A DNA stretch of 37,742 bases, taken from a virus. The position numbers were made by a program, and so were the translations under genes. Below the pieces are notes generated by a model. The model had not been told where the DNA came from and did not search any database. It saw only the letters and a list, made by a program, of their open reading frames with translations. The DNA lies in the IMG/VR virus record IMGVR_UViG_3300045741_000353, positions 1 to 37,742 of that record. One strand, given 5' to 3'. Positions within the stretch are counted from its first letter, which is position 1. Every line of letters begins with the position of its first letter. This document shows positions 319-32,399 of the stretch, piece after piece.

Positions 319-663
319 TTAAACTTTGCGATATGGGTTTAACTTTTTCAACTGAAAAAAACCCTCAAACTCTGGATTTTTAAAAATGACAAGTCTTGTA
401 AAAAGAGCAATAAAATCATTGCTCAACTTAAAATCATTTCCGGTTGTCTCAATTGTTGTGTACCATCTAATACGATTAGCAATCATCCAACCAGAGAATC
501 TTTTACGTCCAGATTTTTTTGCCTCTAAAGAATATTTTAAAAACAAATCATAAACTTGTGGGTTCTCATTATTCCAGTCTTTAAAAAGCTTTAAAAGTAC
601 GGGCGAGCAATCAGAAAATATTTTATCAAATCTCGCTTTTCTCTCTTGTGGCGTCTCATCCAT
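319..663 (-). CDS. Conserved phage early protein of unknown function, 114 aa
   Basis: ORF track. It overlaps the upstream ATPase gene by 8 nt (coupled) and lies in the recombination module. Confidence 0.6.
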   Translation of the reverse strand: MDETPQERKARFDKIFSDCSPVLLKLFKDWNNENPQVYDLFLKYSLEAKKSGRKRFSGWMIANRIRWYTTIETTGNDFKLSNDFIALFTRLVIFKNPEFEGFFQLKKLNPYRKV

Positions 664-1438
664 TTGGTCTTTGCTTTGCTTTTTTAAGCGTTGGCGGGGG
701 AGCTATGTCAGCTTGCTTTGCACTTGTTGGGTCCTTTTGAAAAGCAAGCTGGAGTTGAGTCAAGAGCTCCTCGTAATCAATGGCCATCACTGGTGGCAGA
801 TGCCCGGTTCTATCTTTGGCATTAACGTTTGGCGTTGCCTTTGTTTGCATCATTCTTTTGTGCTCATTGTCCTGGTAACAATAGAAAATAAAATCAACTA
901 ACCCATTCACATAGCTCTTTGGCTGGTTGCTTAGGCTTGAATCAATATACATTCTCTTTACGCCCTTTGATTCTCGCTCACCTTGTTTCTCATGACTAAT
1001 AAAAACTAAACCAATGCCATAGTTGGCAACGTAATTGATTACCTTAGTAAATTCTCGCTTGATAATGTTCCAACCCTTACCAAACCCCTCATCTGACTCA
1101 TGCTCAATTTCTCTTAATTGCAAAGTGTGAATCGCGCAAAACTCAAATGCGTTGTCAATTGTGTCAATGATGATGGTTTTAAATTGATGTTTCTCAGTAC
1201 ATAAAAGTCTAATTGCTTGGCAAAATTCAGTCCAGTTTTTTACAATTTTAGGATTACCATCATCATCTGTGATTTGATTTACCTCTAGATAATTTAGTCC
1301 AGGCTCTGTTGGGATGAAAATTGCGTCAGGAAATTTAGACGCTAGAGTTGATTTTCCAGAACCAGGGTCACCGTAAATTAGAAATTTGTATTTTGATAAA
1401 TCTGTGCATCTAGGCTTTGGCTTGTCTGGTAATTTCAT
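656..1438 (-). CDS. Sak4-like RecA-fold ATPase (AAA_24-type), recombination or ssDNA annealing
   Basis: N-terminal Walker A in the context FLIYGDPGSGKSTLASKFPDAIFIPTEPG is typical of phage Sak4/AAA_24 proteins. A hydrophobic strand ending in D (IIIDTID) serves as Walker B. Confidence 0.75.
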   Translation of the reverse strand: MKLPDKPKPRCTDLSKYKFLIYGDPGSGKSTLASKFPDAIFIPTEPGLNYLEVNQITDDDGNPKIVKNWTEFCQAIRLLCTEKHQFKTIIIDTIDNAFEFCAIHTLQLREIEHESDEGFGKGWNIIKREFTKVINYVANYGIGLVFISHEKQGERESKGVKRMYIDSSLSNQPKSYVNGLVDFIFYCYQDNEHKRMMQTKATPNVNAKDRTGHLPPVMAIDYEELLTQLQLAFQKDPTSAKQADIAPPPTLKKAKQRPNG

Positions 1439-2035: not shown

Positions 2036-3268
2036 TTGACGATATCAGAAAAGGACCTGAGGTCCTTGCAACAGAATCGCATTTCTATAATTAAAAGAGA
2101 CATATCAGATAAATGGGATACAAAATCAACATATGAGCCATTTGCTTTTCTGTTTGAAAATTTTCTAAATGATATCAGGAAAGATTTTTTAACAGGTGTT
2201 GCATATTACAAAGATGCTTTTGGCAAACAAGTGCCAGTTGAGAATGAAATTGAAAATTTAAAATCAATCGCTTTTTCTTGTGGTTTATCTGATTCAAAAA
2301 CACAAATGCATCTAATGCGATATTTGAAACTTTTGCCACCAACATGGTTGGTGGATATCCCCAAATGGGATTTTACAGATAGATTGCGCACACTTTGTTT
2401 TAGTACAAAAGTTTTAAACTTGTCTCAGGAGTGTTTTTATCAGCATTTACTCGCGTGGGGTGCGGGTATTTTTGCTAGAGCTAATGACAATTACAAACAA
2501 AATCATGTGTTGATTTTAAGAGGCAATCAAGGGATTGGAAAAGATTTTTTTATTAAGGTTTTACTTAAAGGTCTTGGACCATATTATGGAGTATGGACTA
2601 ATTCTCGTGATGAAAAAGAAATCATTATGCTCATGGAGCGCTCTTTGGTTTTGAATATCCCTGAGTTTGATAATACTCATCAAAATGAAATTGCAATGCT
2701 CAAAGGTTTAATTACAAAATATCAAGCAACTTTTAGATCACCCTATGCACGTAAAGCAGGCACAGTTTCTTTGCGTTCAAGTTTTGTTTCCTCCGCAAAT
2801 TGCGAATATCTTTTGCGCGATGGTACTGGCAATAGACGATATTTAATTTTTGTTTTGGAGAGTTTTGATTTACTTGAAAAATTTGATGAATTTGATAGTT
2901 CACAAATTTTAGCTCAATTTAAATGGGCATATGAGACCAAGTTTAAAGCAGAGCCTGAGTATAAATTGGCCTCTGATCAGTACATTCAAACTCAAACTCC
3001 AGAACCAATTGAGGATGAAATTTTTAATTTTTGGAACGCAGAGGTTAAAGACTATATGCGTCTAACAAATAACCGTCAAGGTGAGTGGCTGCCCGCTCAT
3101 TCTTTAATGCACATCTTTGCCAAGATCAAAAAAGAGTTTGGCTATGGACGCAATCATGTTGGTGTAATTTTGCAAAACAGGGACTGTAAAACCAGAAAAA
3201 CTGGTGGTGTGTTTTATCGCTGCAACCCGTCACTTTATGTCGCACCAAGTCCACAATTAGGACTTTGA
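2036..3268 (+). CDS. VirE/VapE-family P-loop helicase-like replication protein
   Basis: Walker A LRGNQGIGKDF and the VirE-type motif LLRDGTGNRRYLIF. The ORF is open from TTG 1919, but the in-frame TTG at 2036 follows GGGGGGATTT, the same SD and spacing used by other genes here. The start is therefore uncertain (1919 or 2036). Confidence 0.75.
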   Translation: MTISEKDLRSLQQNRISIIKRDISDKWDTKSTYEPFAFLFENFLNDIRKDFLTGVAYYKDAFGKQVPVENEIENLKSIAFSCGLSDSKTQMHLMRYLKLLPPTWLVDIPKWDFTDRLRTLCFSTKVLNLSQECFYQHLLAWGAGIFARANDNYKQNHVLILRGNQGIGKDFFIKVLLKGLGPYYGVWTNSRDEKEIIMLMERSLVLNIPEFDNTHQNEIAMLKGLITKYQATFRSPYARKAGTVSLRSSFVSSANCEYLLRDGTGNRRYLIFVLESFDLLEKFDEFDSSQILAQFKWAYETKFKAEPEYKLASDQYIQTQTPEPIEDEIFNFWNAEVKDYMRLTNNRQGEWLPAHSLMHIFAKIKKEFGYGRNHVGVILQNRDCKTRKTGGVFYRCNPSLYVAPSPQLGL

Positions 3269-3281
3269 AAAAAAGTAAATG

Positions 3282-3432
3282 CTACATTTATGTAGGTTTT
3301 TTTTTAAAAAAATACATACTTTTGTTTAATTAAATCAAATATTTATTAATAAAATGTAGGTTATGTAGGCTTAATATAAAAGACCCTCTAACGAAATATT
3401 ATATAAAGGGGAATGTAGGTTAAATCCTACAT
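3282..3432. promoter_or_regulatory. Cluster of ATGTAGG motifs (4 direct, 2 inverted) around an AT-rich core; candidate origin or operator
   Basis: ATGTAGG at 3290, 3354, 3363 and 3413. CTACAT at 3282 forms a palindrome with the 3290 copy. CCTACAT at 3426 forms a 7-bp inverted repeat with the 3413 copy (6-nt spacer). Confidence 0.5.
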
Positions 3433-3457
3433 CATTTGTTAACTTTAAGGATGCAGT

Positions 3458-3814
3458 GTGACAAAAAATCAATTAAAAAACCGTCTAATGCGCGTAAAGG
3501 GCCTTAGGCTCCAAGACCCTTGGGGAGACACCTGTATCCTTGGCTGGATGAGGGGGGATGAGGTCTGGGTTTATTATCCAGGGCTTGATATCCCCTTTAA
3601 GCGAGACCTTGATCAGCTGGTTGACGCTGCAAATGGCATTTTCCTTGCCGACAAGTCTCCGCAGTTTGAAAAACGCATGATTCTAGCCTCTGGCATTGAG
3701 GTGGTGCTCCAGTATGAGCCATATTGGCATCCAACTGTGCCTAAGCCTCAAAAACCTGTCCTGGCTCATTCTGGAGCATTTAAACGTAAGACCAAAAGAC
3801 CGATTTATTGGTAA
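3458..3814 (+). CDS. Hypothetical protein, 118 aa (GTG start)
   Basis: ORF track. AAGGA lies upstream of the GTG. GC is higher than in the flanking backbone. Confidence 0.5.
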   Translation: MTKNQLKNRLMRVKGLRLQDPWGDTCILGWMRGDEVWVYYPGLDIPFKRDLDQLVDAANGIFLADKSPQFEKRMILASGIEVVLQYEPYWHPTVPKPQKPVLAHSGAFKRKTKRPIYW

Positions 3815-4080: not shown

Positions 4081-4317
4081 TTAACGCTTTTCAATCCATC
4101 CCTCAATGTGACTAAGCCTTGAATCAATTTTTTCTAGTTTTGTCAGAGCTTGTTTTAACAATTCTTTTGTGTTTTGCAGGTCTATTTGTGCAGCACTTGC
4201 CTTGGCGTCAATGTTAGTTAACCATATCAAGCCACCAACTAAAATCGGGATACATCCAATCACCGCATAGAGTGAAATCTGTGTTTTATCATCAATCGTT
4301 ACACTCTTTGGTGCCAT
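4081..4317 (-). CDS. Small membrane protein, 78 aa (TM helix plus C-terminal coiled coil), antisense to the surrounding operon
   Basis: ORF track. TM segment ISLYAVIGCIPILVGGLIWL is followed by a heptad-like helix. No clear SD. Confidence 0.45.
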   Translation of the reverse strand: MAPKSVTIDDKTQISLYAVIGCIPILVGGLIWLTNIDAKASAAQIDLQNTKELLKQALTKLEKIDSRLSHIEGWIEKR

Positions 4318-4420
4318 AGCTGAATGGTGACAGCGCTATTTTTTTTTATCAACAAAAATTGAGGCAAAGGGTTAGAAAAAGTCCAGTTGGTATTGCGCCA
4401 AATCATGTTTAGCTTGACCA

Positions 4421-5143
4421 TTGGCTGTGGCGATAAATCGGCATCAACGCCTTTTGGTGTTTCCAGACCTGCACTGTCCATATCAACATCCAGATGCTGT
4501 TGATTTTCTTGGTGCGCTCAAAAAGAAACATAGACCCACTCGGGTCATAGGCCTAGGGGATGAATCTGATGGCCATGATATTTCTTACCATGAGTCAAAC
4601 CCAGATTTGATGTCAGCTGGATATGAGTTGCGTGCAGCAATCAGGGCTCTTGAGCCGATTTATCGCCTGTTTCCAGAGGTTGATATGATGTGGTCCAATC
4701 ATGGCTCACTCGTTTTTAGAAAAGGCCTAAGTGCAGGCCTCCCCGCTGACGTATTCAAAAGTTATAATGAGATTTATCACGCTCCAAAAGGTTGGGTCTG
4801 GCATCAGGACCTAACTCTTGAATTGCCAAATGGACAATCAGTTTATTTTTGTCATGGTCGCCAAGCCAACGCACTTGGGATGTCTCAAAAACTTGGGATG
4901 TGTACAGTCAATGGTCATTACCACACCCAATTTTCAATCCAAAAATGGTCAACTCCACTCGCCACCAACTGGGCAATGGTCTGTGGTTGCTTGATTGACC
5001 CAAGGTCCAGTGCCTATGCCTATAACCACCTCCAGGTCCTGCGACCAATTCTTGGCGCTGGCGTGATTTTAGATTCACAACCTAGACTTGAATTGATGTT
5101 GCTTGACAAAAGAGGTCGGTGGACAGGCAAACTCTATGGTTAA
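4421..5143 (+). CDS. Calcineurin-like metallophosphoesterase
   Basis: Motifs in order: FPDLHCP (DxH), GLGDESDG (GDxxD), SNHG (GNH[E/D]-like), GHYH. TTG start 4421; GTG 4427 is an alternative. Confidence 0.7.
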   Translation: MAVAINRHQRLLVFPDLHCPYQHPDAVDFLGALKKKHRPTRVIGLGDESDGHDISYHESNPDLMSAGYELRAAIRALEPIYRLFPEVDMMWSNHGSLVFRKGLSAGLPADVFKSYNEIYHAPKGWVWHQDLTLELPNGQSVYFCHGRQANALGMSQKLGMCTVNGHYHTQFSIQKWSTPLATNWAMVCGCLIDPRSSAYAYNHLQVLRPILGAGVILDSQPRLELMLLDKRGRWTGKLYG

Positions 5144-19729: not shown

Positions 19730-20157
19730 TGGCAATTGCTGATGGTCAAAAGGCTAATGCTACAAATTTTAATGCTGCATTTGCTGACAAGAATTTTCAA
19801 ACTCTAGCGGCTGGGACGAATTTCACCATTGCAAACAATGTTTCTAATCAGCCAGTCACTGGTCTTATTTTCAATAAATTAGCCTATCGGTCTGTAAGGA
19901 TTGAGTGGCAGATTTATAGAAAATCAACAGGTGGTGGAGCGCAATTGCGTGTGCAGCGTGGTTGCTTTTTTGTTTGGCATGACGACACCAATTGGACTTT
20001 AACTCAAGATATCTCGTCAGCCACAGATGCTGGCGTTACATTTGATATTGATGCGACAACTGGTCAAATAACTTACACATCTGATAATCAAACTGGCACT
20101 TACAGCCCATCAACTAGCGTTTTAAGTTACCAAATTGTTCACACAATGAGGCTTTAA
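19729..20157 (+). CDS. Tail-associated protein, 142 aa
   Basis: TAATG coupling on both sides. The N-terminus ADGQKANATNFNAAF resembles N-termini of phage fibre or baseplate proteins. Confidence 0.45.
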   Translation: MAIADGQKANATNFNAAFADKNFQTLAAGTNFTIANNVSNQPVTGLIFNKLAYRSVRIEWQIYRKSTGGGAQLRVQRGCFFVWHDDTNWTLTQDISSATDAGVTFDIDATTGQITYTSDNQTGTYSPSTSVLSYQIVHTMRL

Positions 20158-22787
20158 TGAAAAAAATCATTTTAATTTTCTCAATAATTTTTGGTGCCGC
20201 TGTATTTGCAACAATAGACACTCCGACTTTGCCAAATTTAAAATTAAAAAATTTGACAGCAAGTCAAATTACAGCAACTGACGCTAACAAAACTTTTCAA
20301 TCAGTGGCTGTGTCTCCAACTGAATTGCTAAATGTTGCTGGAGTGACATCAAGTTTGTGCGGGATTTCTCAAAGTTGCACTTTAACAAATAAAACTATGA
20401 GCGGAGCTGCAAATACATTTACTAATATCTCACTAACATCATCTGTGACTGGTATTTTACCAGTTGCAAATGGTGGTACAAATTTATCATCTGGCATTAG
20501 TGGTGGTATTTTAGGATTTTCTGCACCTGGAGTTTTAGCGTCTAGTGCATTGCTTGGGACTAATCAAATTGTGCTTGGTGGTGGAGCTGGCGCAACTCCA
20601 ACATCGCTCCCGTCATTAGGTACAGCAACAACATTACTCCATGGTAACGCAGCTGGAGCACCTAGTTTTTCATCTGTATCTTTAACAGCTGATGTAAGTG
20701 GCACTCTGCCGATTGCAAGTGGTGGTACAAATTCAGCCACAGCGCTCAATAACAATAGAGTAATGGTTTCCAGTGCTGGTTCTATTTCTGAGGCCCTGGC
20801 TATTACTGGAAATAAAGCCTTGGCATCAAATGCCTCTGGTATCCCTGTTGCCTCTGCTACAACAGACACTGAATTAGGATTTGTCTCTGGCGTGACATCT
20901 GCGATTCAAACTCAACTCAATGGCAAGCAAGCAACTGGTAATTACATTACAAATCTCACTGGTGATGTCACAGCAACTGGTCCTGGCTCTGTTGCTGCGA
21001 CTTTAGCCAACACAGCTGTAACGCCTGGCTCTTACACTCTTGGGAGTTTTACTGTTGATGCAAAAGGACGGCTAACATCTGCATCAAATGGTACGGCTGT
21101 TACAAGCGTGTCTGCCACAGTGCCTGCATTCCTGTCCATATCTGGAAGCCCCATTACAACTTCTGGGACACTCGCTATAGGGCTTAGTGGCACAGCCTTG
21201 CCTGTTGCTAACGGTGGCACGGGATTAACGGCTGGCACATCTGGAGGCATTCTAGGATACACAGCCACAGGCACTTTGGCCTCAAGTGCTGTTTTGACAG
21301 CTAATCGAATAGTTTTAGGCGGTGGCGCTGGTGCAACGCCTGGTGTTTTAGGTTCACTTGGAACGACTACAACAGTTTTACATGGTAATGCCGCTGGTGC
21401 GCCAACTTTTGGTGCAGTTAGTTTGACTGGTGACGTGAGTGGTACTTTGCCGGTGGCTAACGGTGGCACAAATGTTACATCAGTTACAACAGCGCCAACT
21501 GCCACATCATTTGCTGGATGGGATGCAAACAAAAATTTATCAGCAAATAATTTTATCGCTGGTTACACGACAACAGCAACATCTGGTGGCACAACAACTT
21601 TAACAGCGTCCAGCACATATCAGCAATTTTTTACAGGGACACTAGCTCAAACTGTTGTTTTGCCGGTCACAAGCACACTTGTTTTAGGCGAATCATTTTT
21701 AGTTGCAAACAATAGCACTCAAAATATTACAGTTCAAAGCTCTGGTTTAAACACGATTGCAACTATAGCTAGTGGTGATCAAGGTATTTTCACAGTAATT
21801 TTAACATCTGGTACAACCGCTGCATCATGGGCAAATGATGTTGGCGGTGGTGGCGGCAGTGGTACTGTTACAAGTGTCGCAATGACTGTCCCATCATTTT
21901 TATCAATTGCTGGCAGTCCGATTACAACAGCTGGTACTTTGGCTTTGACTTTAAGCGGGACAGCTTTGCCTGTCACGAGTGGTGGCACTGGTTTGGTGTC
22001 TGGCACAAGTGGAGCAATACCTTACTTTGCTGGAGGCACAACAATTGCCTCATCATCTGTACTTACTCAAAATGCTGTGATGGTTGGTGGTGGAATTGGT
22101 GCTGCGCCAATTACTTTAGCAAGCACTGGCACAGCTGGACAGGTTTTAACAAGCAATGGTTCATCGGCACCATCTTTTCAACAGACTGCCACTGGCGGTG
22201 GTTCATCATTTTTAACATCTGGCACCACTTACACAACTCCAGCAAACATTACCACATCAACTAGATTTAAATTTAAGTTGATTGGAGGTGGTGGTGGAGG
22301 TTCATCAGGTGCAATAAATAGCTATGCAGCTGGTGGCGGCGCTGGTGGTATGATTGATGTTTATTTAACTGGTTTAAATCCTAGCACTAGTTACACAATG
22401 GCAATCGGTGCGGCTGGTGCTGGTGGTGCAGTTGGTTTCTCTGGAGGAAATGGTGGTAATACAACCATTACCATCAACGCAACAACTTACACAGCTGGTG
22501 GCGGCGCTGGCTCTGTTTCCGGTACTCCAGGAACTGGTGGTACAGCAACCGGAGGTACGATAAATGTTGTTGGACAAGCTGGCTCTGGAAACTTTTTTTC
22601 AAATGGTGGAGGCATTGGAGGGAGCACTATATATGGTCCAGGTGGACCATCAAGAGGCACATCTGGAGTTGGGACTAACGCAACTGGGTTTGGTGGTGGA
22701 GGCGGTGGAGGCGTTGGCTCTGGTTCAACAGCTTTTGCTGGAGGCAATGGCACTCAAGGTGCGATATTAGTTGAATATCAAAACTAA
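20157..22787 (+). CDS. Tail fibre protein, 876 aa, with triplicated LPVANGGTG modules and a C-terminal glycine-rich domain
   Basis: Signal-like N-terminus MKKIILIFSIIFGAAVFA/TI. Repeated modules at 20448-20726, 21096-21470 and 21867-22181. The Gly-rich C-terminal domain starts at about 22212. Confidence 0.75.
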   Translation: MKKIILIFSIIFGAAVFATIDTPTLPNLKLKNLTASQITATDANKTFQSVAVSPTELLNVAGVTSSLCGISQSCTLTNKTMSGAANTFTNISLTSSVTGILPVANGGTNLSSGISGGILGFSAPGVLASSALLGTNQIVLGGGAGATPTSLPSLGTATTLLHGNAAGAPSFSSVSLTADVSGTLPIASGGTNSATALNNNRVMVSSAGSISEALAITGNKALASNASGIPVASATTDTELGFVSGVTSAIQTQLNGKQATGNYITNLTGDVTATGPGSVAATLANTAVTPGSYTLGSFTVDAKGRLTSASNGTAVTSVSATVPAFLSISGSPITTSGTLAIGLSGTALPVANGGTGLTAGTSGGILGYTATGTLASSAVLTANRIVLGGGAGATPGVLGSLGTTTTVLHGNAAGAPTFGAVSLTGDVSGTLPVANGGTNVTSVTTAPTATSFAGWDANKNLSANNFIAGYTTTATSGGTTTLTASSTYQQFFTGTLAQTVVLPVTSTLVLGESFLVANNSTQNITVQSSGLNTIATIASGDQGIFTVILTSGTTAASWANDVGGGGGSGTVTSVAMTVPSFLSIAGSPITTAGTLALTLSGTALPVTSGGTGLVSGTSGAIPYFAGGTTIASSSVLTQNAVMVGGGIGAAPITLASTGTAGQVLTSNGSSAPSFQQTATGGGSSFLTSGTTYTTPANITTSTRFKFKLIGGGGGGSSGAINSYAAGGGAGGMIDVYLTGLNPSTSYTMAIGAAGAGGAVGFSGGNGGNTTITINATTYTAGGGAGSVSGTPGTGGTATGGTINVVGQAGSGNFFSNGGGIGGSTIYGPGGPSRGTSGVGTNATGFGGGGGGGVGSGSTAFAGGNGTQGAILVEYQN

Positions 22788-23401: not shown

Positions 23402-23792
23402 TTGCACAACAACACCACCTGACATTGCTGTATTTAGATCACTTACACAAAGGCTCAGTCATGACCCATTAAATGGTCATTTGATTTTGACTCCAGACCC
23501 AGTGTGCGAAAAAGAAATAAAAGAAATAGAGTGCGGCTTTGGTGTTTACATAATTAGCAAACGTCGAGTTTTTGTTGGCGAGCAAAAAGAGCATTGGTTT
23601 AAAGGCAAGCCATGGTCACAATTAAAAAAAGAATCGATATTGCTCCCCGCTGTTGAATCATATGCTCCATTATCAAAATACATCATAGATTCTTGTAAAG
23701 AGTTGGGTTGTAATGACCAAGTTGATAGATTTAAAGTGCAGCTTGACCAGTTAAATAATATTGAACCTAATTTAAATCCTAAGGGGGAGTGA
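23358..23792 (+). CDS. Putative lipoprotein, 144 aa, overlapping the 3' end of the membrane-protein gene (o-spanin-like arrangement)
   Basis: MKSRLLWLLPLFLINC is signal-like with a Cys, but Asn at -1 makes the lipobox atypical. The ORF is open from 23289, so the start is ambiguous (23322, 23331, 23340 or 23358). ATGA-type coupling to the endolysin gene. Confidence 0.4.
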   Translation: MKSRLLWLLPLFLINCTTTPPDIAVFRSLTQRLSHDPLNGHLILTPDPVCEKEIKEIECGFGVYIISKRRVFVGEQKEHWFKGKPWSQLKKESILLPAVESYAPLSKYIIDSCKELGCNDQVDRFKVQLDQLNNIEPNLNPKGE

Positions 23793-24439
23793 TGAGAGTT
23801 GTTTGTCCGGCAGGACCTGTAATAAAAGGTATTGATATTTATCAGGGAAATATGATTTCAGACATCAACCTTTTGAAATCAAGTGGGATTGTTTACGCAT
23901 TTCACAAAGCTTTTGAATATAGACAAGACCCTAAATTTAAAAGTAGATGGGATAATTTTAAAAGGGTTGGGATTGCTAGAGGTGCATATGATTTTTTTCA
24001 TCCAGGTAAGGATGTGGCAACCCAAGCAAGTAATTTTTTAGGTATTGTTGGCCAATTAGAGCCAACAGATATGGGATGTGTACTTGATTGGGAGGTCATG
24101 GATGGTCTGTCACCTGGTCCAAACAAAGAGCACGCTTTGAAATGGCTTGATATTGTTGAGCGAGCCACAAAAAAAACACCTGGCATCTATGGCTCATCCT
24201 CAATATTAGCTGGCCTTGGACTTGATCAAAGATTTAAAAAATATTGGCTATGGATTGCAAACTATGGTGTCCCTTGTCCTCACGTACCTCCACCTTGGGA
24301 CACTTGGACCTTTTGGCAAACTGATGACACCAAGCATGTGCCAGGTATTGCTGGAGCGTGTGATAGGGACCTTTTTAATGGGTCTATTGATCAATTTCAC
24401 AACTTTATCAAAACAACTAATTTAGGGGGGATGAAATGA
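23789..24439 (+). CDS. Endolysin, glycoside hydrolase family 25 muramidase
   Basis: GH25 pattern: GIDIYQGN..., GAYDFFHP, VLDWE, LWIANYG, WTFWQ, and GIAGACDRDLFNG at the C-terminus. No signal peptide. Confidence 0.85.
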   Translation: MMRVVCPAGPVIKGIDIYQGNMISDINLLKSSGIVYAFHKAFEYRQDPKFKSRWDNFKRVGIARGAYDFFHPGKDVATQASNFLGIVGQLEPTDMGCVLDWEVMDGLSPGPNKEHALKWLDIVERATKKTPGIYGSSSILAGLGLDQRFKKYWLWIANYGVPCPHVPPPWDTWTFWQTDDTKHVPGIAGACDRDLFNGSIDQFHNFIKTTNLGGMK

Positions 24440-27075: not shown

Positions 27076-27888
27076 GTGCCAGATATTGCAAGTGCTTTAA
27101 TTAAAATGAATGACTCTGAAATAGGCTCTGACAAACCAGTGTCAGAGGCGTTAATGACAAAGCTTGGTGCAAGCATAAATGCTTTGATTGATTTAGCACC
27201 ATCATTTCAGGCTTTTAATTCTAATGGGTCTTTTACTGCGCCACCAAATGTAACTCGTGTATTTTTATTTGGATGGGGAGGTGGAGGTGGAGGTGGAGGT
27301 GGTGCTGGTGCTGCAACAAATGGTGGTAATGGAGCTAATGGCACAAGTACATCATTTGGTACAACTCTTTTTATTGGTGGAGTTGGTGGAGTTGGTGGAG
27401 TTGGTACTGGTAACCCATCATCTGGTGGAGTTAGTACAGGTGTTGCAAGTGGTGGAAATGGTGGCATAGCCAGTCCAACTCTTATTTTTCCAACAAATGG
27501 ATTTTCAAGCTTCAATTTTCCAGGTGGTAACGCTGGCAGTAATAACAATGGCTTAGGTGGCGGTGGAGGTGGCGGTGGCGCTGCGAGCTCTGGCGGTGCT
27601 GGCGGCGCTGGCGGATCACCCGGTAATGGTGGCAATGGCTCTGGTGGTGCTTTTAATACAGGTGCCGGTGGTGGTGGTGGTGGTGGGTGTGGTGTTGCTG
27701 GTCATCAAGGCGGTGGTGGTGGCGGGAGTGGCTCACCAGGCAATCTTATTGGATTAGGCGTTACACCTGGAGCGACTTATACAATAACCATAGGTAACGG
27801 TGGCTCACCTGGCAGCGCTGGAACAGGTGTAAACACTGGAGGGTTAGGTGGCTCTGGTGGCTCTGGTGGCTTAGTTGTTTTTTGGTAA
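27076..27888 (+). CDS. Glycine-rich domain protein, 270 aa; paralogous to the C-terminus of the 876-aa fibre
   Basis: GTG start after TAAGGGGGAT. FTAPPNVTRVFLFGWGGGGGGGG ... TPGATYTITIGNGG ... GLVVFW parallels TTPANITTSTRFKFKLIGGGGGG ... TSYTMAIGAAG ... AILVEYQN in the fibre. Confidence 0.65.
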   Translation: MPDIASALIKMNDSEIGSDKPVSEALMTKLGASINALIDLAPSFQAFNSNGSFTAPPNVTRVFLFGWGGGGGGGGGAGAATNGGNGANGTSTSFGTTLFIGGVGGVGGVGTGNPSSGGVSTGVASGGNGGIASPTLIFPTNGFSSFNFPGGNAGSNNNGLGGGGGGGGAASSGGAGGAGGSPGNGGNGSGGAFNTGAGGGGGGGCGVAGHQGGGGGGSGSPGNLIGLGVTPGATYTITIGNGGSPGSAGTGVNTGGLGGSGGSGGLVVFW

Positions 27889-28520: not shown

Positions 28521-28570
28521 CAACCAGAGTTACTTGATTCTAGGGGATAAAGTGGCTCTGGTTGTTTTTT
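28521..28570 (+). terminator. Hairpin plus T6 at the convergence point of the two arms
   Basis: CAACCAGAG (28521-28529) pairs with CTCTGGTTG (28556-28564), followed by TTTTTT. The 26-nt loop is long for a canonical terminator. Confidence 0.45.
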
Positions 28571-29246
28571 AAAGTATTGTGAATTCAGTCCCGAACGGGT
28601 TAACCGTGATTGGTCCCGTGAAATACATATTATTTAAAAGACTGATCATTGAGTTAGCCCTGCCAACGCTTTTCTGCCACTCATCTCTTGTGTCTGGGTC
28701 ATGTGGGTAAATAAGTGTTTCGCGCCTGACTTCCATGAACTTCTTAAGCCATGTCTTTTCATCTGACACCGGGCCTGATCTTTTAATCAATCCACCCAAG
28801 CTATCATGATCATCCCCGTCGCCATGTTGAATGATAGCCTCATAGATCGCGACCTTGGTCAGATCATACTGAAAACCATGTCTATCTGCGTGAACCATAG
28901 CCGGGTAATAATAGAGTTTGTCGCTGACAAAATCCTGGGCGTCCTTGAAAATTTGATTAAGGCAGGCATGTTTCCATGCAGCAGGTAACCCACCCAAAAA
29001 GTGAGTACTGCCACTTTTGTACTTAGCCAAATTTCTGAGCGTCGGTAATAGTTTTTTAAAGTCCACTGGGAATCTCTCCACAACCTCAAGCAAGTCCCCC
29101 TCAGCCGTACAAAACCCAGCACGTCCAGCCGTGTACCCTCTGCCATCGTGCAGGTTATCGATATAGCCGTACTGGAGTTCAAGCGTCTCGTTCTCAAAGA
29201 CGCTTATTAATTGATCGGCTCTACGTTTTTGAAATGGGGTTAGCAT
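28569..29246 (-). CDS. Glycoside hydrolase family 46 chitosanase
   Basis: ISVFENETLELQYGYIDNLHDGRGYTAGRAGFCTAEGDLLEVVE aligns by eye with the Streptomyces N174 chitosanase region SSAENSSLDW..QYKYIEDIGDGRGYTGGIIGFCSGTGDMLELVQ (catalytic Glu and Asp contexts). No signal peptide. Confidence 0.85.
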   Translation of the reverse strand: MLTPFQKRRADQLISVFENETLELQYGYIDNLHDGRGYTAGRAGFCTAEGDLLEVVERFPVDFKKLLPTLRNLAKYKSGSTHFLGGLPAAWKHACLNQIFKDAQDFVSDKLYYYPAMVHADRHGFQYDLTKVAIYEAIIQHGDGDDHDSLGGLIKRSGPVSDEKTWLKKFMEVRRETLIYPHDPDTRDEWQKSVGRANSMISLLNNMYFTGPITVNPFGTEFTIL

Positions 29247-29404
29247 TAACCGGAACCGTAACCGGAACCGTAACCGGAACCGTAACCGGAACCGTCACCG
29301 TCACCGTAACCGTCACCGTAACCGTAACCGGAACCGGAACCGTCACCGTCACCGTAACCGTAACCGGAACCGTCACCGGAACCGTAACCGTCTACTGTTT
29401 CCAT
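29246..29404 (-). CDS. 52-aa (Gly-X)24 repeat peptide, X = Tyr/Ser/Asp (below the ORF-track cutoff)
   Basis: ATG 29404, with GAGGCGG about 7 nt upstream. Translation: METVDGYGSGDGSGYGYGDGDGSGSGYGYGDGYGDGDGSGYGSGYGSGYGSG. The TAA stop overlaps the chitosanase ATG (TAATG), and the start overlaps the end of the upstream gene. Confidence 0.5.
   Translation of the reverse strand: METVDGYGSGDGSGYGYGDGDGSGSGYGYGDGYGDGDGSGYGSGYGSGYGSG
29249..29392. repeat. Tandem hexanucleotide array: 24 units of ACCGGA, ACCGTA or ACCGTC
   Basis: Read directly: 8 ACCGGA, 9 ACCGTA and 7 ACCGTC units with no interruption. Confidence 0.95.
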
Positions 29405-29682
29405 ATTTCTACCGCCTCAATAATTTTAGACGCCACGTCAGTCACATTAAGTACTTCAATAATTTCACTGACTTCAATTTCATCAACCGGGGTAGGAAAT
29501 TTACATTCTTTTGGACATTGAGGGCCGTCTACTGCCAATTGACTAAGGCTTGAGGCACCTTTCCAATACCATAGGCGGCGGGCATTCTTTAATATGCCTC
29601 GCTTACCATCGACTGATCTATTTTCAATATCTCCCGGAATGTAAAATACTCCCGCTGAATATGTTCTAACTATCTTTGCCAT
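29392..29682 (-). CDS. Conserved phage protein, 96 aa (RTYSAGV...ARRLWYWKGA..LS.LA motif family)
   Basis: ORF track. The motif pattern recalls a widespread phage family of unknown function (DUF6948-like, from memory and unverified). Confidence 0.55.
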   Translation of the reverse strand: MAKIVRTYSAGVFYIPGDIENRSVDGKRGILKNARRLWYWKGASSLSQLAVDGPQCPKECKFPTPVDEIEVSEIIEVLNVTDVASKIIEAVEIWKQ

Positions 29683-30826: not shown

Positions 30827-31092
30827 ATCCCCTCCAAAGTTTTCTCAAGGGCTGAGAGGGCTTCGCGCATAGTATCGCAATCCTTGTGATCTAAAAAATG
30901 GCCAAGGTGCGAATGCTCTCCACACTTGTCCGGTATTGTCGGCATGTTTTCGACAAACTCAATCAGGGCGCTTAGGATGGGCTGGAGGCAAATATGCGCT
31001 CGCTGTCGTCCGCGTTCAAAATCAAAGTCGTTGCCCTCGACGTTTTTAAACTCACACGCCTTGCGTAGACGGTCGAGGAGAGTGATGGTCAT
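30823..31092 (-). CDS. Hypothetical protein, 89 aa
   Basis: ORF track. ATGA overlap with the subtilase stop. Confidence 0.5.
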   Translation of the reverse strand: MTITLLDRLRKACEFKNVEGNDFDFERGRQRAHICLQPILSALIEFVENMPTIPDKCGEHSHLGHFLDHKDCDTMREALSALEKTLEGM

Positions 31093-32399
31093 TTTACTGT
31101 CTCACCAATGTCATATTGTCCCATGCCTTGCTGGTCTTGGGTTAAACCAAGATTTACAAATCCTGTCAATGATTTTCCTTTAGCCAACATAATCGCAAAT
31201 GTTGCAGCTGCCGCTGGAGTTGCCATTGATGTACCATTTAGAATTTTTACAGGTCCACCAAGAGGGATTGGCCAGGTGGATGGGATATTTGAGCCTGGAG
31301 CAATACCCATCTTACCACCTATTTTTACACCTCGACTTGAGAAAAAAGACATATGCATTGATTCATCCATTGAGGTCACAGTCCATACGTTTGGTTTATT
31401 ACCTGGAAATCCAATAGGTCCTCCAGAACTATTTCCAGCCGCTGCCACAAAAATACCACCTTGAGCAACATAGGCATCAATCTGTGCTCCAATGTAAGGG
31501 TCTGAGCCTTGGTCCATACCCCAACTAGCTGATACAATTTGAGCATGGCTTTGAGCCGCATCATTTATGCATCCACCAAGAGATAATGAATCTCCAGAGC
31601 CTTGATTGTTTAACCCTTTACATGGCTTGATTTTAACATGCGCATGACCAAACCGAGTGCTCCCAATGATGCCAGCTGTGTGACTGCCATGGCCTGAGCC
31701 GTCAATATTCACTGGCTGTCCAGCAACTCGACTCACTCCAGGCACAAGCATACCAGCTGGAAATTGGTCCATAATTGATTGGTCAAGACCAGTGTCAATA
31801 TCCTCAATCAAGATATTACTCGCATCAATCCCTTGGCTCACATGCATGGCCTTTTGACCCCACGTTGTTTCTTGAATTGGACTTGGGTTAGGTGTTGGCG
31901 TTGGCACTGGATTAGGCGTTGGTGGTGGAGTGGGAGTTGGTACAGGTTGCGGGGGAGATTGGCAATTGCTGTCAACTGGAGTTAGCCTGTAAAGCGTCTC
32001 ATAAACATGGTAATATTGAACCTTTTGAATGGTCCAATTTTCATCAGAATGCTTTGAAAAATCCTCACCATGTTTTGCAACAAAACTAAATCCATTTATG
32101 CCATCAATAGGTTCAACTTGGTCGGCATTAAGTGTTGCCATTTGAAAATATTTTGCCTCAATCGTTTTATCACCTTTTTGCTTTTTAAATTTATGCTTGT
32201 GAAACGCAATCCATTTATCAGTCTTTGGCTCATCAATCTGATATTTGGCAAATTCTTGAGGTTTTGATTTAGGTAATGATCTGTAAGGATGATAATAAAA
32301 TGCGAGCATTGTTAAACCAGTGATTATAAATAAGATCAAAGGTACAATTTTTAACCACTTGGACCAAAAATCAACCATGTCTTTTTGCTCATTATCCAT
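31089..32399 (-). CDS. Membrane-anchored subtilisin-like serine protease (S8)
   Basis: N-terminal TM helix IVPLILFIITGLTMLAFYY and a Pro/Thr linker PPQPVPTPTPPPTPNPVPTPTPNPSP. Catalytic motifs in D-H-S order: DIDTG, HGSHTAG, AAAGN, GTSMATP. Confidence 0.85.
   Translation of the reverse strand: MDNEQKDMVDFWSKWLKIVPLILFIITGLTMLAFYYHPYRSLPKSKPQEFAKYQIDEPKTDKWIAFHKHKFKKQKGDKTIEAKYFQMATLNADQVEPIDGINGFSFVAKHGEDFSKHSDENWTIQKVQYYHVYETLYRLTPVDSNCQSPPQPVPTPTPPPTPNPVPTPTPNPSPIQETTWGQKAMHVSQGIDASNILIEDIDTGLDQSIMDQFPAGMLVPGVSRVAGQPVNIDGSGHGSHTAGIIGSTRFGHAHVKIKPCKGLNNQGSGDSLSLGGCINDAAQSHAQIVSASWGMDQGSDPYIGAQIDAYVAQGGIFVAAAGNSSGGPIGFPGNKPNVWTVTSMDESMHMSFFSSRGVKIGGKMGIAPGSNIPSTWPIPLGGPVKILNGTSMATPAAAATFAIMLAKGKSLTGFVNLGLTQDQQGMGQYDIGETVK

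Follow-up and report, generated by a model that had tools for sequence, protein, structure and literature searches.

Sm, LSm and Hfq proteins with low-complexity C-terminal tails are among the closest described systems, i.e., SmD1 with (Gly-Arg)n, SmD3/SmB with RG repeats, LSm4, and Hfq of Acinetobacter with a Gly-rich C-terminal domain. FUS/hnRNP-type low-complexity domains contain [G/S]Y[G/S] motifs, and the fibroin heavy chain of Bombyx mori is built of (Gly-X)n repeats. The single-strand DNA-binding proteins E. coli SSB (linker and tip), T7 gp2.5 and T4 gp32 carry acidic, Gly-rich disordered tails, which occupy their own binding clefts. Among phages, GoF, MotB.1 and Frd.2 of T4 are small early proteins of unknown function with a predicted LSm-like fold (PMC12152347), and no Gly-X partner gene is described for them. 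In Iodobacter phage phiPLPE, a GC-rich repeat, (KMGCCG)35, was described as non-coding DNA and a possible attachment site (PMC3391216, Table 3).

The window, i.e., the whole stretch of 37,742 nt that was analysed, contains a small ORF of Gly-X dipeptides between two minus-strand genes. The following features were assigned.

29392..29682, minus strand: DUF6948 gene (96 aa), first cistron of a conserved pair, a small β-barrel with a predicted Sm/LSm-like fold; its C-terminal Trp codon carries the start of the next gene
29415..29418, minus strand: SD-like GAGG, 10 nt upstream of the repeat gene ATG, inside the DUF6948 coding sequence (Glu-Ala codons)
29401..29404, minus strand: start junction A+TGG, where the repeat gene ATG is built on the conserved Trp codon of DUF6948 (13-nt overlap, -1 frame)
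29246..29404, minus strand: Gly-X repeat micro-gene (52 aa, METVD and 23.5 Gly-[Tyr/Ser/Asp] dipeptides), second cistron of the pair
29249..29389, minus strand: hexamer array (GGT-KMC)n encoding (Gly-X)n, a length-variable tract that tends to break assemblies
29244..29248, minus strand: TAATG stop/start overlap with the downstream gene, specific to this window
28569..29246, minus strand: GH46-family gene (225 aa), last gene of the minus-strand early operon, a neighbour and not a conserved partner

The earlier note had recognized this ORF in an apparent gap between two genes, and the observation was confirmed. The product (METVDGYGSGDGSGYGYGDGDGSGSGYGYGDGYGDGDGSGYGSGYGSGYGSG) contains 24 Gly, 9 Tyr, 8 Ser and 7 Asp, with a pI of 4.05 and a net charge of about -8.5. 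TRF reported a period of 6 with 24.2 copies and a score of 192 at 29247-29391. In codon register, the array is 23.5 units of GGT-TAC (9), GGT-TCC (8) and GGT-GAC (6). These are the plus-strand hexamers ACCGTA, ACCGGA and ACCGTC of the note in a shifted register. The ATG (29404-29402) lies 13 nt inside the upstream ORF, and the TAA stop shares one base (29246) with the ATG of the GH46 gene. The ORF was not called on this JGI contig. The exact peptide and two alternative-frame ORFs were absent from a collection of 15 billion proteins, whereas the two neighbouring genes were present.

An open frame is not evidence of coding here, because four of the six frames are open across the repeat in the window and five of six are mostly open across 142 related arrays. 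The note had proposed to check whether the frame stays open in relatives, and this criterion was uninformative. The comparison with relatives was therefore based on codon-set variation, the start codon and in-frame flanking domains, and it came out in favour of coding.

In about 160 related loci, a Gly-X repeat ORF follows a DUF6948-superfamily gene. In 37 loci, 883 of 1,023 X residues are Ser, Tyr or Asp, although lineages use GGT, GGC, GGG or GGA for Gly, TCC, TCT, TCA, TCG or AGC for Ser, TAC or TAT for Tyr, and GAC or GAT for Asp. The other sense frames read T/V/P, T/A/P or M/A/L depending on lineage. The start codon sits on the conserved C-terminal Trp codon of DUF6948, and the base before TGG is A in 124, G in 18, T in 2 and C in 2 of 146 loci. 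The starts are ATG in 130, GTG in 23 and TTG in 2, i.e., ATG or GTG in 153 of 158 pairs. The overlap is exactly 13 nt in 115 of 158 pairs, the repeat is in the -1 frame in 131 of 158, and an SD-like 4-mer is present at -18..-4 in 101 of 146 loci. This arrangement fits an overlapping gene pair with a conserved start, and the coupling of translation is inferred from it.

The association was found in both directions. DUF6948 is followed by the repeat in 36 of 36 IMG/VR loci and in 62 of 72 genome loci with room downstream, and 8 of the 9 exceptions inspected are degenerate Gly-rich ORFs in the same frame. Starting from the repeat, 61 of 120 loci found by pattern have a DUF6948 HMM hit immediately upstream. 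Most of the remaining true G-[YSD] ORFs follow remote DUF6948 relatives (hhalign probabilities of 87%, 87.5% and 98%).

In a family of 4,415 proteins, the repeat lies in frame between a conserved leader (MTLDEKIKAFLSV) and a conserved C-terminal domain of about 155 aa. All 120 listed members carry the tract, with 4-43 dipeptides. Two of these proteins, P0123 and P0125, are identical except for a 9-dipeptide duplication. Leader-tract-domain architecture was found in about 20 of 122 complete loci (about 16%). At least three unrelated C-terminal domains are attached to such tracts, i.e., at loci of the L024 type, at locus L018 and at loci L068/L166. The domain fused in about 16% of loci gave no function: there was no Pfam, PHROG, NCBIfam or PDB sequence hit, and the Foldseek TM was only about 0.2. 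Two loci encode barrel and tail as one polypeptide. In locus L077, the fusion is genuine and has a different junction. In locus L014, it arises through one extra G and could be a single-base sequencing error.

The ORF is intact with the 13-nt overlap in complete chromosomes and in cultured phages, i.e., Ralstonia phage NK-7, Pectobacterium phage Ymer, Iodobacter phage phiPLPE and Chlorobiaceae phage CV-1-33. The NK-7 homolog was named "fibroin heavy chain-like protein" in GenBank. The phiPLPE repeat is the same element as that of the window. It lies at positions 46,046-46,255 of NC_011142, directly after gp84, a DUF6948-like gene, as an unannotated (Gly-[Y/S/D])n ORF that starts inside gp84 and is followed by a terminator-like hairpin.

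The upstream gene was recognized by Pfam as DUF6948 (PF22253, E=1.1e-23). It has 4,711 homologs, and every source-given name is "hypothetical protein". The AF2 model (pLDDT 97.3) was searched with Foldseek, and the top 50 PDB hits were almost all Sm/LSm, but the similarity was weak (E 0.01-0.2, TM 0.5-0.6). The model lacks the N-terminal helix of the Sm fold and has a helix inserted between strands. No Sm1/Sm2 sequence motifs and no LSM Pfam hit were found, one homolog gave a marginal, sub-threshold SM-ATX hit (E=0.034), and a PDB sequence search gave nothing meaningful. BFVD returned only DUF6948 or uncharacterised proteins, and no OB-fold or SSB match was found. Ring formation and RNA or DNA binding of this protein would be inferences by analogy only.

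For the repeat peptide, direct homology search found nothing; of 4,757 candidates none was scored, probably owing to the composition correction of HMMER. Pfam gave only a sub-threshold hit, i.e., TrAA12 at 19-23 bits against a cut-off of 30.9, and PHROGs, NCBIfam and PADLOC gave nothing. A distant blastn of the region against deposited phages was also without hits. At the X positions about 32% of residues are aromatic (Tyr, sometimes Phe), about 25% are acidic (Asp), about 42% are small (Ser, less often Ala, Thr or Asn), and essentially none are basic. Only 1 of 146 arrays lacks an aromatic residue and only 1 lacks an acidic one. Phe outnumbers Tyr in 9 arrays, and one has Phe only. Net charge per residue averages -0.115. 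The Gly-X tract is the only segment with pLDDT below 50 in the model of a leader-tract-domain protein, and the repeat is predicted to be disordered.

Compared with Sm-type proteins, a small barrel with a predicted Sm-like fold is likewise combined with a disordered tail of Gly-containing dipeptides. However, this tail is acidic and aromatic rather than Arg-rich, and it is normally a separate polypeptide whose coupled translation is inferred. With FUS-type domains the peptide shares dense G-Y-G and S-G-Y-G motifs (9 Tyr in 48 residues), predicted disorder and an aromatic residue as the conserved "sticker". It differs by a strict period of 2, about 25% Asp, no Gln or Asn enrichment, a size of only 22-150 aa and its encoding by bacterial viruses. 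Tyr and Asp are spaced only marginally more evenly than random (mean z -0.14), which gives no clear support to a sticker-spacer design. With the single-strand DNA-binding proteins, the pair shares a β-barrel plus an acidic and aromatic disordered tail in an early DNA-metabolism context, but here the tail is a dipeptide repeat and a separate gene.

The downstream gene was assigned to GH46 (PF01374, E=4.4e-45) and is named chitosanase by JGI. No GH46 homolog occurs in any of 249 related loci, and GH46-anchored searches of viral and metagenome contigs found no relatives. Only 3 of 73 loci have a same-strand gene within 5 nt downstream, and several show a terminator-like hairpin directly after the stop. 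Identifiable downstream neighbours are AAA_24, RecT, Gp157, PD-(D/E)XK, Dam, helicase, integrase and HNH. In the window, the pair lies in the minus-strand operon with Sak4, exonuclease and methyltransferase genes.

The interpretation of the note is partly supported. Its reading of a real coding micro-gene rather than a spacer holds, as do its reading of translational coupling (inferred here), its prediction that repeat number changes in multiples of 6 nt without breaking the frame, its description of the product as acidic, Tyr-rich and presumably disordered, and its remark that no function is described. Its framing around the chitosanase is not supported, and the idea of a polyanion binding chitosan or PNAG has no comparative support. 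The conserved partner is DUF6948, which the note treated only as the upstream gene. Its argument from boundary precision is right for the 5' boundary and incidental for the 3' boundary.

From these comparisons, the analysis establishes, with very high confidence, that the 159-nt ORF is a genuine protein-coding gene and the second cistron of a deeply conserved phage and prophage cassette. The first cistron is a DUF6948-superfamily protein of about 95 aa, and the second is a variable-length polypeptide almost wholly of Gly-X dipeptides, which grows and shrinks in 6-nt steps and starts on the Trp codon. This rests on sequence comparison, without direct evidence of translation for any member. The rest is inference. 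From the geometry, the second cistron would be translated by coupling to DUF6948, i.e., by reinitiation after termination or by the embedded SD, so that the two products are made together. It is more likely than not that they act together physically, although this is inferred only from coupling, co-occurrence and the two fusions. More tentatively, the Gly-X polypeptide would be a detachable, disordered, acidic and aromatic low-complexity tail of the barrel protein, normally a separate chain and occasionally fused. Through many weak aromatic contacts, kept soluble by Asp, it would either mediate multivalent self-association or binding, or tether extra C-terminal domains to the barrel protein, in the early DNA/RNA-metabolism phase of infection. 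In this view, the tight junction with GH46 is incidental operon packing.

A further extension is possible but unlikely on present evidence. Phages across most bacterial phyla would carry a module in which the Sm-like barrel protein and the separately translated, FUS-like polypeptide together build a multivalent nucleic-acid-associated assembly early in infection. It could be a condensate or a replication/RNA "factory", or a single-strand nucleic-acid mimic that hijacks host RNA- or DNA-binding proteins, and hexamer slippage would tune its valency. This would be a prokaryotic-virus counterpart of the eukaryotic Sm/LSm-plus-low-complexity-tail granule proteins, hidden because the repeat breaks assemblies and is skipped or mis-framed by gene callers.

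Of the alternatives, a passive variable-length linker survives best, but it is considered unlikely. The tract would be only a flexible spacer, i.e., an entropic tether, between a leader and a C-terminal effector domain, and in this window the domain would have been lost, leaving a functionless or nearly neutral remnant. The leader-tract-domain architecture, its highly variable tract length, the predicted disorder and the variety of attached domains agree with this reading, and the spacer position in about 16% of loci fits it equally well as the tail model. However, about 84% of complete loci have no C-terminal domain yet keep the ORF, the start codon and the composition, and domain-less versions are intact in complete chromosomes and cultured phages. 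A simple linker needs only Gly and Ser, but 145 of 146 arrays keep aromatic residues, 145 of 146 keep acidic ones, and essentially no basic residues occur.

A nucleic-acid mimic or decoy is about as doubtful. An extended Gly-X chain would present rings and carboxylates about one dipeptide apart, roughly the spacing of single-stranded nucleic acid, and would occupy the nucleic-acid-binding surface of DUF6948 or of host proteins, as the tails of gp2.5, gp32 and SSB do for their own clefts. The strongly acidic, aromatic-rich composition, free of basic residues, agrees with this. Phe can replace Tyr, so the ring rather than the hydroxyl is the constant feature. The partner, with a predicted Sm-like fold, has invariant Arg, Lys, Trp and Phe residues, and the pair sits in the early DNA-metabolism module. 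However, the reading is entirely inferential, the charge density (about 1 per 8 residues) is far below that of nucleic acid or of DNA mimics such as Ocr, and no PADLOC or anti-defence hit was found.

A silk-like or amyloid-like structural polymer, which would form β-sheet fibrils with an all-Gly and an all-X face by strict Gly-X alternation as in fibroin (GAGAGS/GAGAGY), is improbable. The strict Gly-X alternation with Ser and Tyr, the GenBank name of the NK-7 homolog and locus L035, which is (G-A/G-Y/G-D)n and very close to fibroin motifs, are in its favour. However, Ala is only 18 of 1,023 X residues, about 25% Asp on the X face should oppose sheet stacking, and AF2 gives no strand confidence. 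The products are small (22-150 aa) and cytoplasmic, have no signal peptide and are encoded in early rather than structural modules.

A non-coding element, i.e., a microsatellite, iteron array or attachment site, is very unlikely and largely refuted. The open frames and the lack of annotation by JGI and RefSeq left room for it. However, the DNA unit differs between lineages while the residues stay the same, the start codon and frame are conserved, the tract lies in frame in thousands of proteins, natural fusion to DUF6948 exists, and length changes are always whole codon pairs. The RNA of the repeat is not unusually structured (z = -1.64), and no Rfam or tRNA hits were found. A chitosanase accessory peptide, suggested by the TAATG junction and the acidity, is contradicted by the missing GH46 homologs, the diverse downstream genes or hairpin and the lack of a signal peptide.

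Other classes were also compared. The repeat does not fit the RTX or DxDxDG calcium-binding repeats, because its period is 2 aa and not 9 aa, there is no hydrophobic U position, DGDGDG strings occur only sporadically, and no Pfam hit passes threshold. It is not collagen-like, because Gly is at every second residue. A RiPP precursor does not agree with the context, because the conserved neighbour is DUF6948 only, the others are DNA-metabolism genes, the S8 protease of the window was not among the downstream-neighbour families detected, and Phe replaces Tyr in some lineages. Programmed -1 frameshifting to fuse DUF6948 with the repeat was considered, but there is no slippery heptamer at the junction, and a conserved ATG or GTG explains the data more simply.

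The pair is very widespread, i.e., more than 4,700 DUF6948 clusters and more than 4,400 proteins of the domain-bearing form. They come from genomes and MAGs assigned to Proteobacteria, Firmicutes, Spirochaetes, Acidobacteria, Cyanobacteria, CPR, Planctomycetes, Chlamydiae and others. The second member is an extreme low-complexity protein that no curated family covers, and literature searches on DUF6948, the repeat motifs and fibroin-like, silk-like or Gly-Tyr phage proteins found nothing relevant. What was previously known is the phiPLPE repeat as DNA, and the record is corrected here, because this attachment-site-like repeat is an unannotated ORF and the CV-1-33 record annotates the wrong frame. 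The cultured Pectobacterium, Ralstonia and Iodobacter phages make a tractable system for what a minimal aromatic and acidic Gly-X polymer does in a bacterial cell, with condensate formation, nucleic-acid mimicry or tethering as candidate roles, and the pair gives a first functional handle on DUF6948.

The repeat also explains a recurrent assembly breakpoint in phage contigs, and so a systematic blind spot. Short-read assemblies of the repeat are unreliable, so the reported lengths are approximate, and length varies between otherwise identical proteins. Of 158 contigs, 33 end inside the repeat ORF. The Logan contigs of close relatives also break inside the repeat, before the region downstream.

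An ORF in the - strand encodes a Gly-X repeat peptide, and it is placed between two other genes as follows.
29392..29682 (-), upstream ORF, DUF6948 (PF22253, E=1e-23)
29246..29404 (-), repeat ORF, ATG to TAA, 52 codons
28569..29246 (-), downstream ORF, GH46 (PF01374, E=4e-45)

The repeat ORF, which was described in the earlier note, was confirmed. It encodes METVD followed by 23.5 Gly-X dipeptides, i.e., G24, Y9, S8, and D7, with a pI of 4.05 and a net charge of about -8.5. Tandem Repeats Finder reported a period-6 array of 24.2 copies (score 192) at 29247-29391. Only three unit types were found, i.e., GGT-TAC (9), GGT-TCC (8), and GGT-GAC (6). The ATG lies 13 nt inside the upstream ORF, and a GAGG sits 10 nt upstream of the ATG. 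The TAA shares one base with the ATG of the downstream ORF. The repeat ORF was uncalled on this contig. The exact peptide and both alternative-frame ORFs were absent from a collection of 15 billion proteins, whereas both neighbours of this 37,742-bp JGI contig were present. Four of the six frames are open over the repeat, so an open frame alone proves nothing.

Comparative evidence shows that the ORF is a protein-coding gene. By searching IMG/VR with the DUF6948 protein, 36 loci were found, and all 36 carry a Gly-X repeat that begins at the end of the DUF6948 gene. Across 37 loci, including the window, 883 of 1,023 X residues are Ser (400), Tyr (259), or Asp (224). Each lineage writes the same peptide with its own codons, i.e., GGT, GGC, GGG, or GGA for Gly, TCC, TCT, TCA, TCG, or AGC for Ser, TAC or TAT for Tyr, and GAC or GAT for Asp. 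The other sense frames read T/V/P, T/A/P, T/G/P, or M/A/L depending on lineage, and only the Gly-X reading is conserved. In one locus (L034), a 1-nt deletion inside the array switches the reading from G-[YSD] to T/P-G, which is either a pseudogene or a sequencing error.

In 158 non-redundant pairs of DUF6948 and repeat ORF, the repeat ORF is in the -1 frame relative to DUF6948 in 131, and the overlap is exactly 13 nt in 115. The start codon is ATG in 130, GTG in 23, and TTG in 2. The start is built on the conserved C-terminal Trp codon of DUF6948. The base before TGG is A in 124 loci, G in 18, T in 2, and C in 2. That base is the third position of a variable codon, so this is direct evidence of selection for a start codon.

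Comparative evidence also indicates that the tract is translated through. In about 20 of 122 complete loci (e.g., L024, L060, L062, L069, L087, L097, L108, L109, L127, and L149), the Gly-X tract continues in frame into a conserved domain of about 155 aa with the motifs IDgvPTII, FAHGET, and WHHxLTGSCxxGR, of which FAHG and WHHxLTGSCxxGR are invariant. By profile search, 4,415 such proteins were found. All 120 listed members (P0121-P0240) carry a conserved N-terminal leader (MTLDEKIKAFLSV), then 4-43 Gly-X dipeptides, and then the domain. Two of these proteins, P0123 and P0125, have identical leaders and domains and differ only by a 9-dipeptide duplication within the tract. Conserved protein sequence on both sides of a tract whose length always changes by whole codon pairs cannot be explained by a non-coding repeat. 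The domain showed no Pfam, PHROG, NCBIfam, or PDB match and no Foldseek match (TM about 0.2), so it may be a new fold. One nr record calls a member 'colicin E3'. Two further, unrelated C-terminal domains are fused behind Gly-X tracts, i.e., 111 aa in locus L018 and about 60 aa in loci L068 and L166, so the tract acts as a modular N-terminal element for several different domains. Tandem duplications of the repeat gene were found in three loci (L103 at 1720-2643, L012 at 4268-4667, and L025 from about 4530 onward), with two or more consecutive Gly-X ORFs that each have their own short leader, for example MGLKAFLKFGDGSG... In locus L175, the Gly-rich ORF runs after the tract into sequence that resembles the C-terminus of a UMP kinase (…ADVILMAKKGTDGIYDSDPNKNP…), which could be a prophage/host junction or a chimeric contig.

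The association of DUF6948 and the repeat is specific in both directions. In bacterial and archaeal genome assemblies, 62 of 72 DUF6948 loci with room downstream have a strict Gly-X run. Of nine exceptions inspected, eight encode degenerate Gly-rich peptides in the same frame, starting on the same Trp codon, and one (L249) has only the C-terminal domain. Six DUF6948 loci from this search (L203, L209, L217, L219, L228, and L229) were on contigs binned into archaeal MAGs (Woesearchaeota, Methanobacteriaceae, and Bathyarchaeota), which could be archaeal viruses or binning contamination. In the other direction, IMG/VR was scanned for (GGNKMY)12, and 120 loci were found. Of these, 61 have a DUF6948 HMM hit immediately upstream, 19 have no room upstream, 12 have no strict G-X run, and 28 have no DUF6948 hit. 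Roughly 10 of the 28 are plain (GS)n, (GD)n, or (GF)n runs. The remaining true G-[YSD] ORFs mostly follow genes of 90-110 aa with the same design and a terminal Trp.

These upstream genes are remote DUF6948 relatives. Some are recognised by Pfam, and hhalign between classes gave probabilities of 87% for A1-A2 (E=4e-6), 87.5% for A1-A3, and 98% for A2-A3. The genes of class A2 (L070, L072, L151, L163, L140, and L144) and class A3 (L075, L092, L100, L111, and L137) were missed by the Pfam DUF6948 model, so the superfamily is broader than this model. In locus L077, a DUF6948-like domain and the repeat are encoded as a single polypeptide with a different junction, and locus L014 does so through one extra G.

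The gene is present, and mishandled, in cultured phages. In Ralstonia phage NK-7, a DUF6948-like gene is followed by a 137-aa (G-[SYD])n protein annotated as 'fibroin heavy chain-like protein'. In Pectobacterium phage Ymer and its relatives, a 73-aa version is annotated as hypothetical, and the genus paper does not discuss it. In Chlorobiaceae phage CV-1-33 (MT192033.1, locus L046), gene_25 is annotated in the wrong frame (MAMAMALAMA..., locus 3274-3519). The conserved G-[YSD/E/N/K] frame is open there (3258-3515), from an ATG that overlaps gene_26 (DUF6948) by the canonical 13 nt. In Iodobacter phage phiPLPE (NC_011142.1, locus L049, about 1173-1410, between gp84 and gp83), an unannotated (G-[YSD])n ORF starts inside gp84, and a terminator-like hairpin follows it. 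This stretch was listed as a DNA repeat, (KMGCCG)35, and a possible attachment site (PMC3391216). The reverse complement of that unit is GGC-KMC, which encodes Gly followed by Tyr, Ser, Asp, or Ala. In complete chromosomes, the ORF is intact, 87-138 aa long, with the 13-nt overlap.

The repeat is a systematic assembly breakpoint (e.g., contigs of loci L001-L036, L037, and L250-L254). The repeat ORF runs off the contig end in 33 of 158 pairs, and every Logan contig of the closest relatives of the window breaks 30-50 nt into the repeat. The gene and whatever follows it are therefore under-represented in metagenomic phage catalogues. Contigs that encode the identical DUF6948 protein (P0007) carry a 37-aa version or a version of at least 92 aa, although the long one may be an assembly artefact.

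The interpretation in the earlier note was partly supported, i.e., the coding gene was upheld, but its tie to the adjacent chitosanase is incidental. No GH46 homolog was found in the six-frame translation of any of 249 fetched loci, or in the GH46-anchored scans of viral and metagenome contigs. Only 3 of 73 loci have a same-strand ORF within 5 nt of the stop of the repeat ORF, and the median gap is 97 nt. Several loci show a terminator-like hairpin right after the stop. Where downstream genes could be identified, they were AAA_24, RecT, Gp157, PD-(D/E)XK, Dam, helicase, integrase, and HNH.

DUF6948 gave a very confident AF2 model (pLDDT 97.3), predicted as a small beta-barrel with two helices. 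The best PDB matches were almost exclusively Sm/LSm proteins, including 6ppn_H and the Sm-like GOS protein 3by7, but the scores were weak (E 0.01-0.2, TM 0.5-0.6). In BFVD, only uncharacterised DUF6948 proteins were returned. No Sm sequence motif was detected, and one homolog showed a marginal SM-ATX hit. In the AF2 model of a leader-tract-domain protein, the Gly-X tract is the only segment with pLDDT below 50.

Composition at the X positions is tightly held across 146 arrays, i.e., aromatic 32±12%, acidic 25±11%, small 42±14%, and basic 0.2%. Only one array lacks an aromatic residue and only one lacks an acidic residue. Phe outnumbers Tyr in 9 arrays and fully replaces it in L025. The aromatic ring, not the Tyr hydroxyl, is therefore the constant feature. 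This argues against Tyr-specific chemistry such as phosphorylation, cross-linking, or cofactor biogenesis.

The analysis establishes a real gene, the second cistron of a conserved DUF6948/Gly-X cassette, with a selected start codon on the Trp codon, an acidic-aromatic product of variable length that is predicted to be disordered, and an early DNA-metabolism context. It is an inference that coupled translation gives co-production and that the two proteins act together, and this is supported by coupling as read from the gene geometry, near-obligate co-occurrence, and natural fusions. The most likely mechanism, which is only tentative, is that the polypeptide serves as a detachable low-complexity tail of a predicted Sm-like barrel. 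The tail would provide multivalent aromatic contacts, kept soluble by Asp, or tether accessory domains. This would be analogous to the tails of SmD1, LSm4, and Hfq, the FUS low-complexity domains, or the SSB tails. T4 LSm-like early proteins are a precedent (PMC12152347). The rival readings are a passive linker remnant, a nucleic-acid mimic, and a silk-like fibril. A non-coding DNA element and a chitosanase helper are contradicted by the data.

No Pfam, PHROG, NCBIfam, PADLOC, or PDB entry, and no paper in the literature searched, describes the Gly-X protein or its link to DUF6948. The only published mention found treats it as non-coding DNA. Homologs do exist in databases as 'hypothetical protein', 'fibroin heavy chain-like', or (once) 'colicin E3'. 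The recognition of the family and the cassette is new, not the first sighting of the sequence.

The window looks like a whole siphovirus-like genome. Terminase, major head protein, tape measure, and tail fibres are encoded on the plus strand. A minus-strand early operon (37689 to 28569) carries a RecB-like exonuclease, an S8 protease, a DNA methyltransferase, DUF6948, the repeat gene, and GH46. Other features of the window were as follows.
656-1438 (-), Sak4-like gene, on the same strand as the early operon
31089-32399 (-), subtilisin-like S8 protease of the early operon, upstream of the pair, with a Pro/Thr-rich linker (tandem repeats at 31877-31943)
23789-24439 (+), endolysin-like gene in the tail module (PHROG 291, E=1e-30)
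20157-22787, 876-aa tail protein with a Pfam Gly_rich_2 domain
27076-27888 (+), 270-aa extremely Gly-rich protein following the tail-fibre gene

S8 proteases were not among the downstream-neighbour families detected at related loci. The phage has two candidate cell-wall hydrolases, i.e., the endolysin-like gene and the GH46 'chitosanase' at the end of the early operon. The 270-aa protein has poly-Gly and GGxGxG runs, with several short tandem repeats at 27277-27871. It showed no family hit and is a different kind of Gly-rich sequence from the Gly-X repeat.
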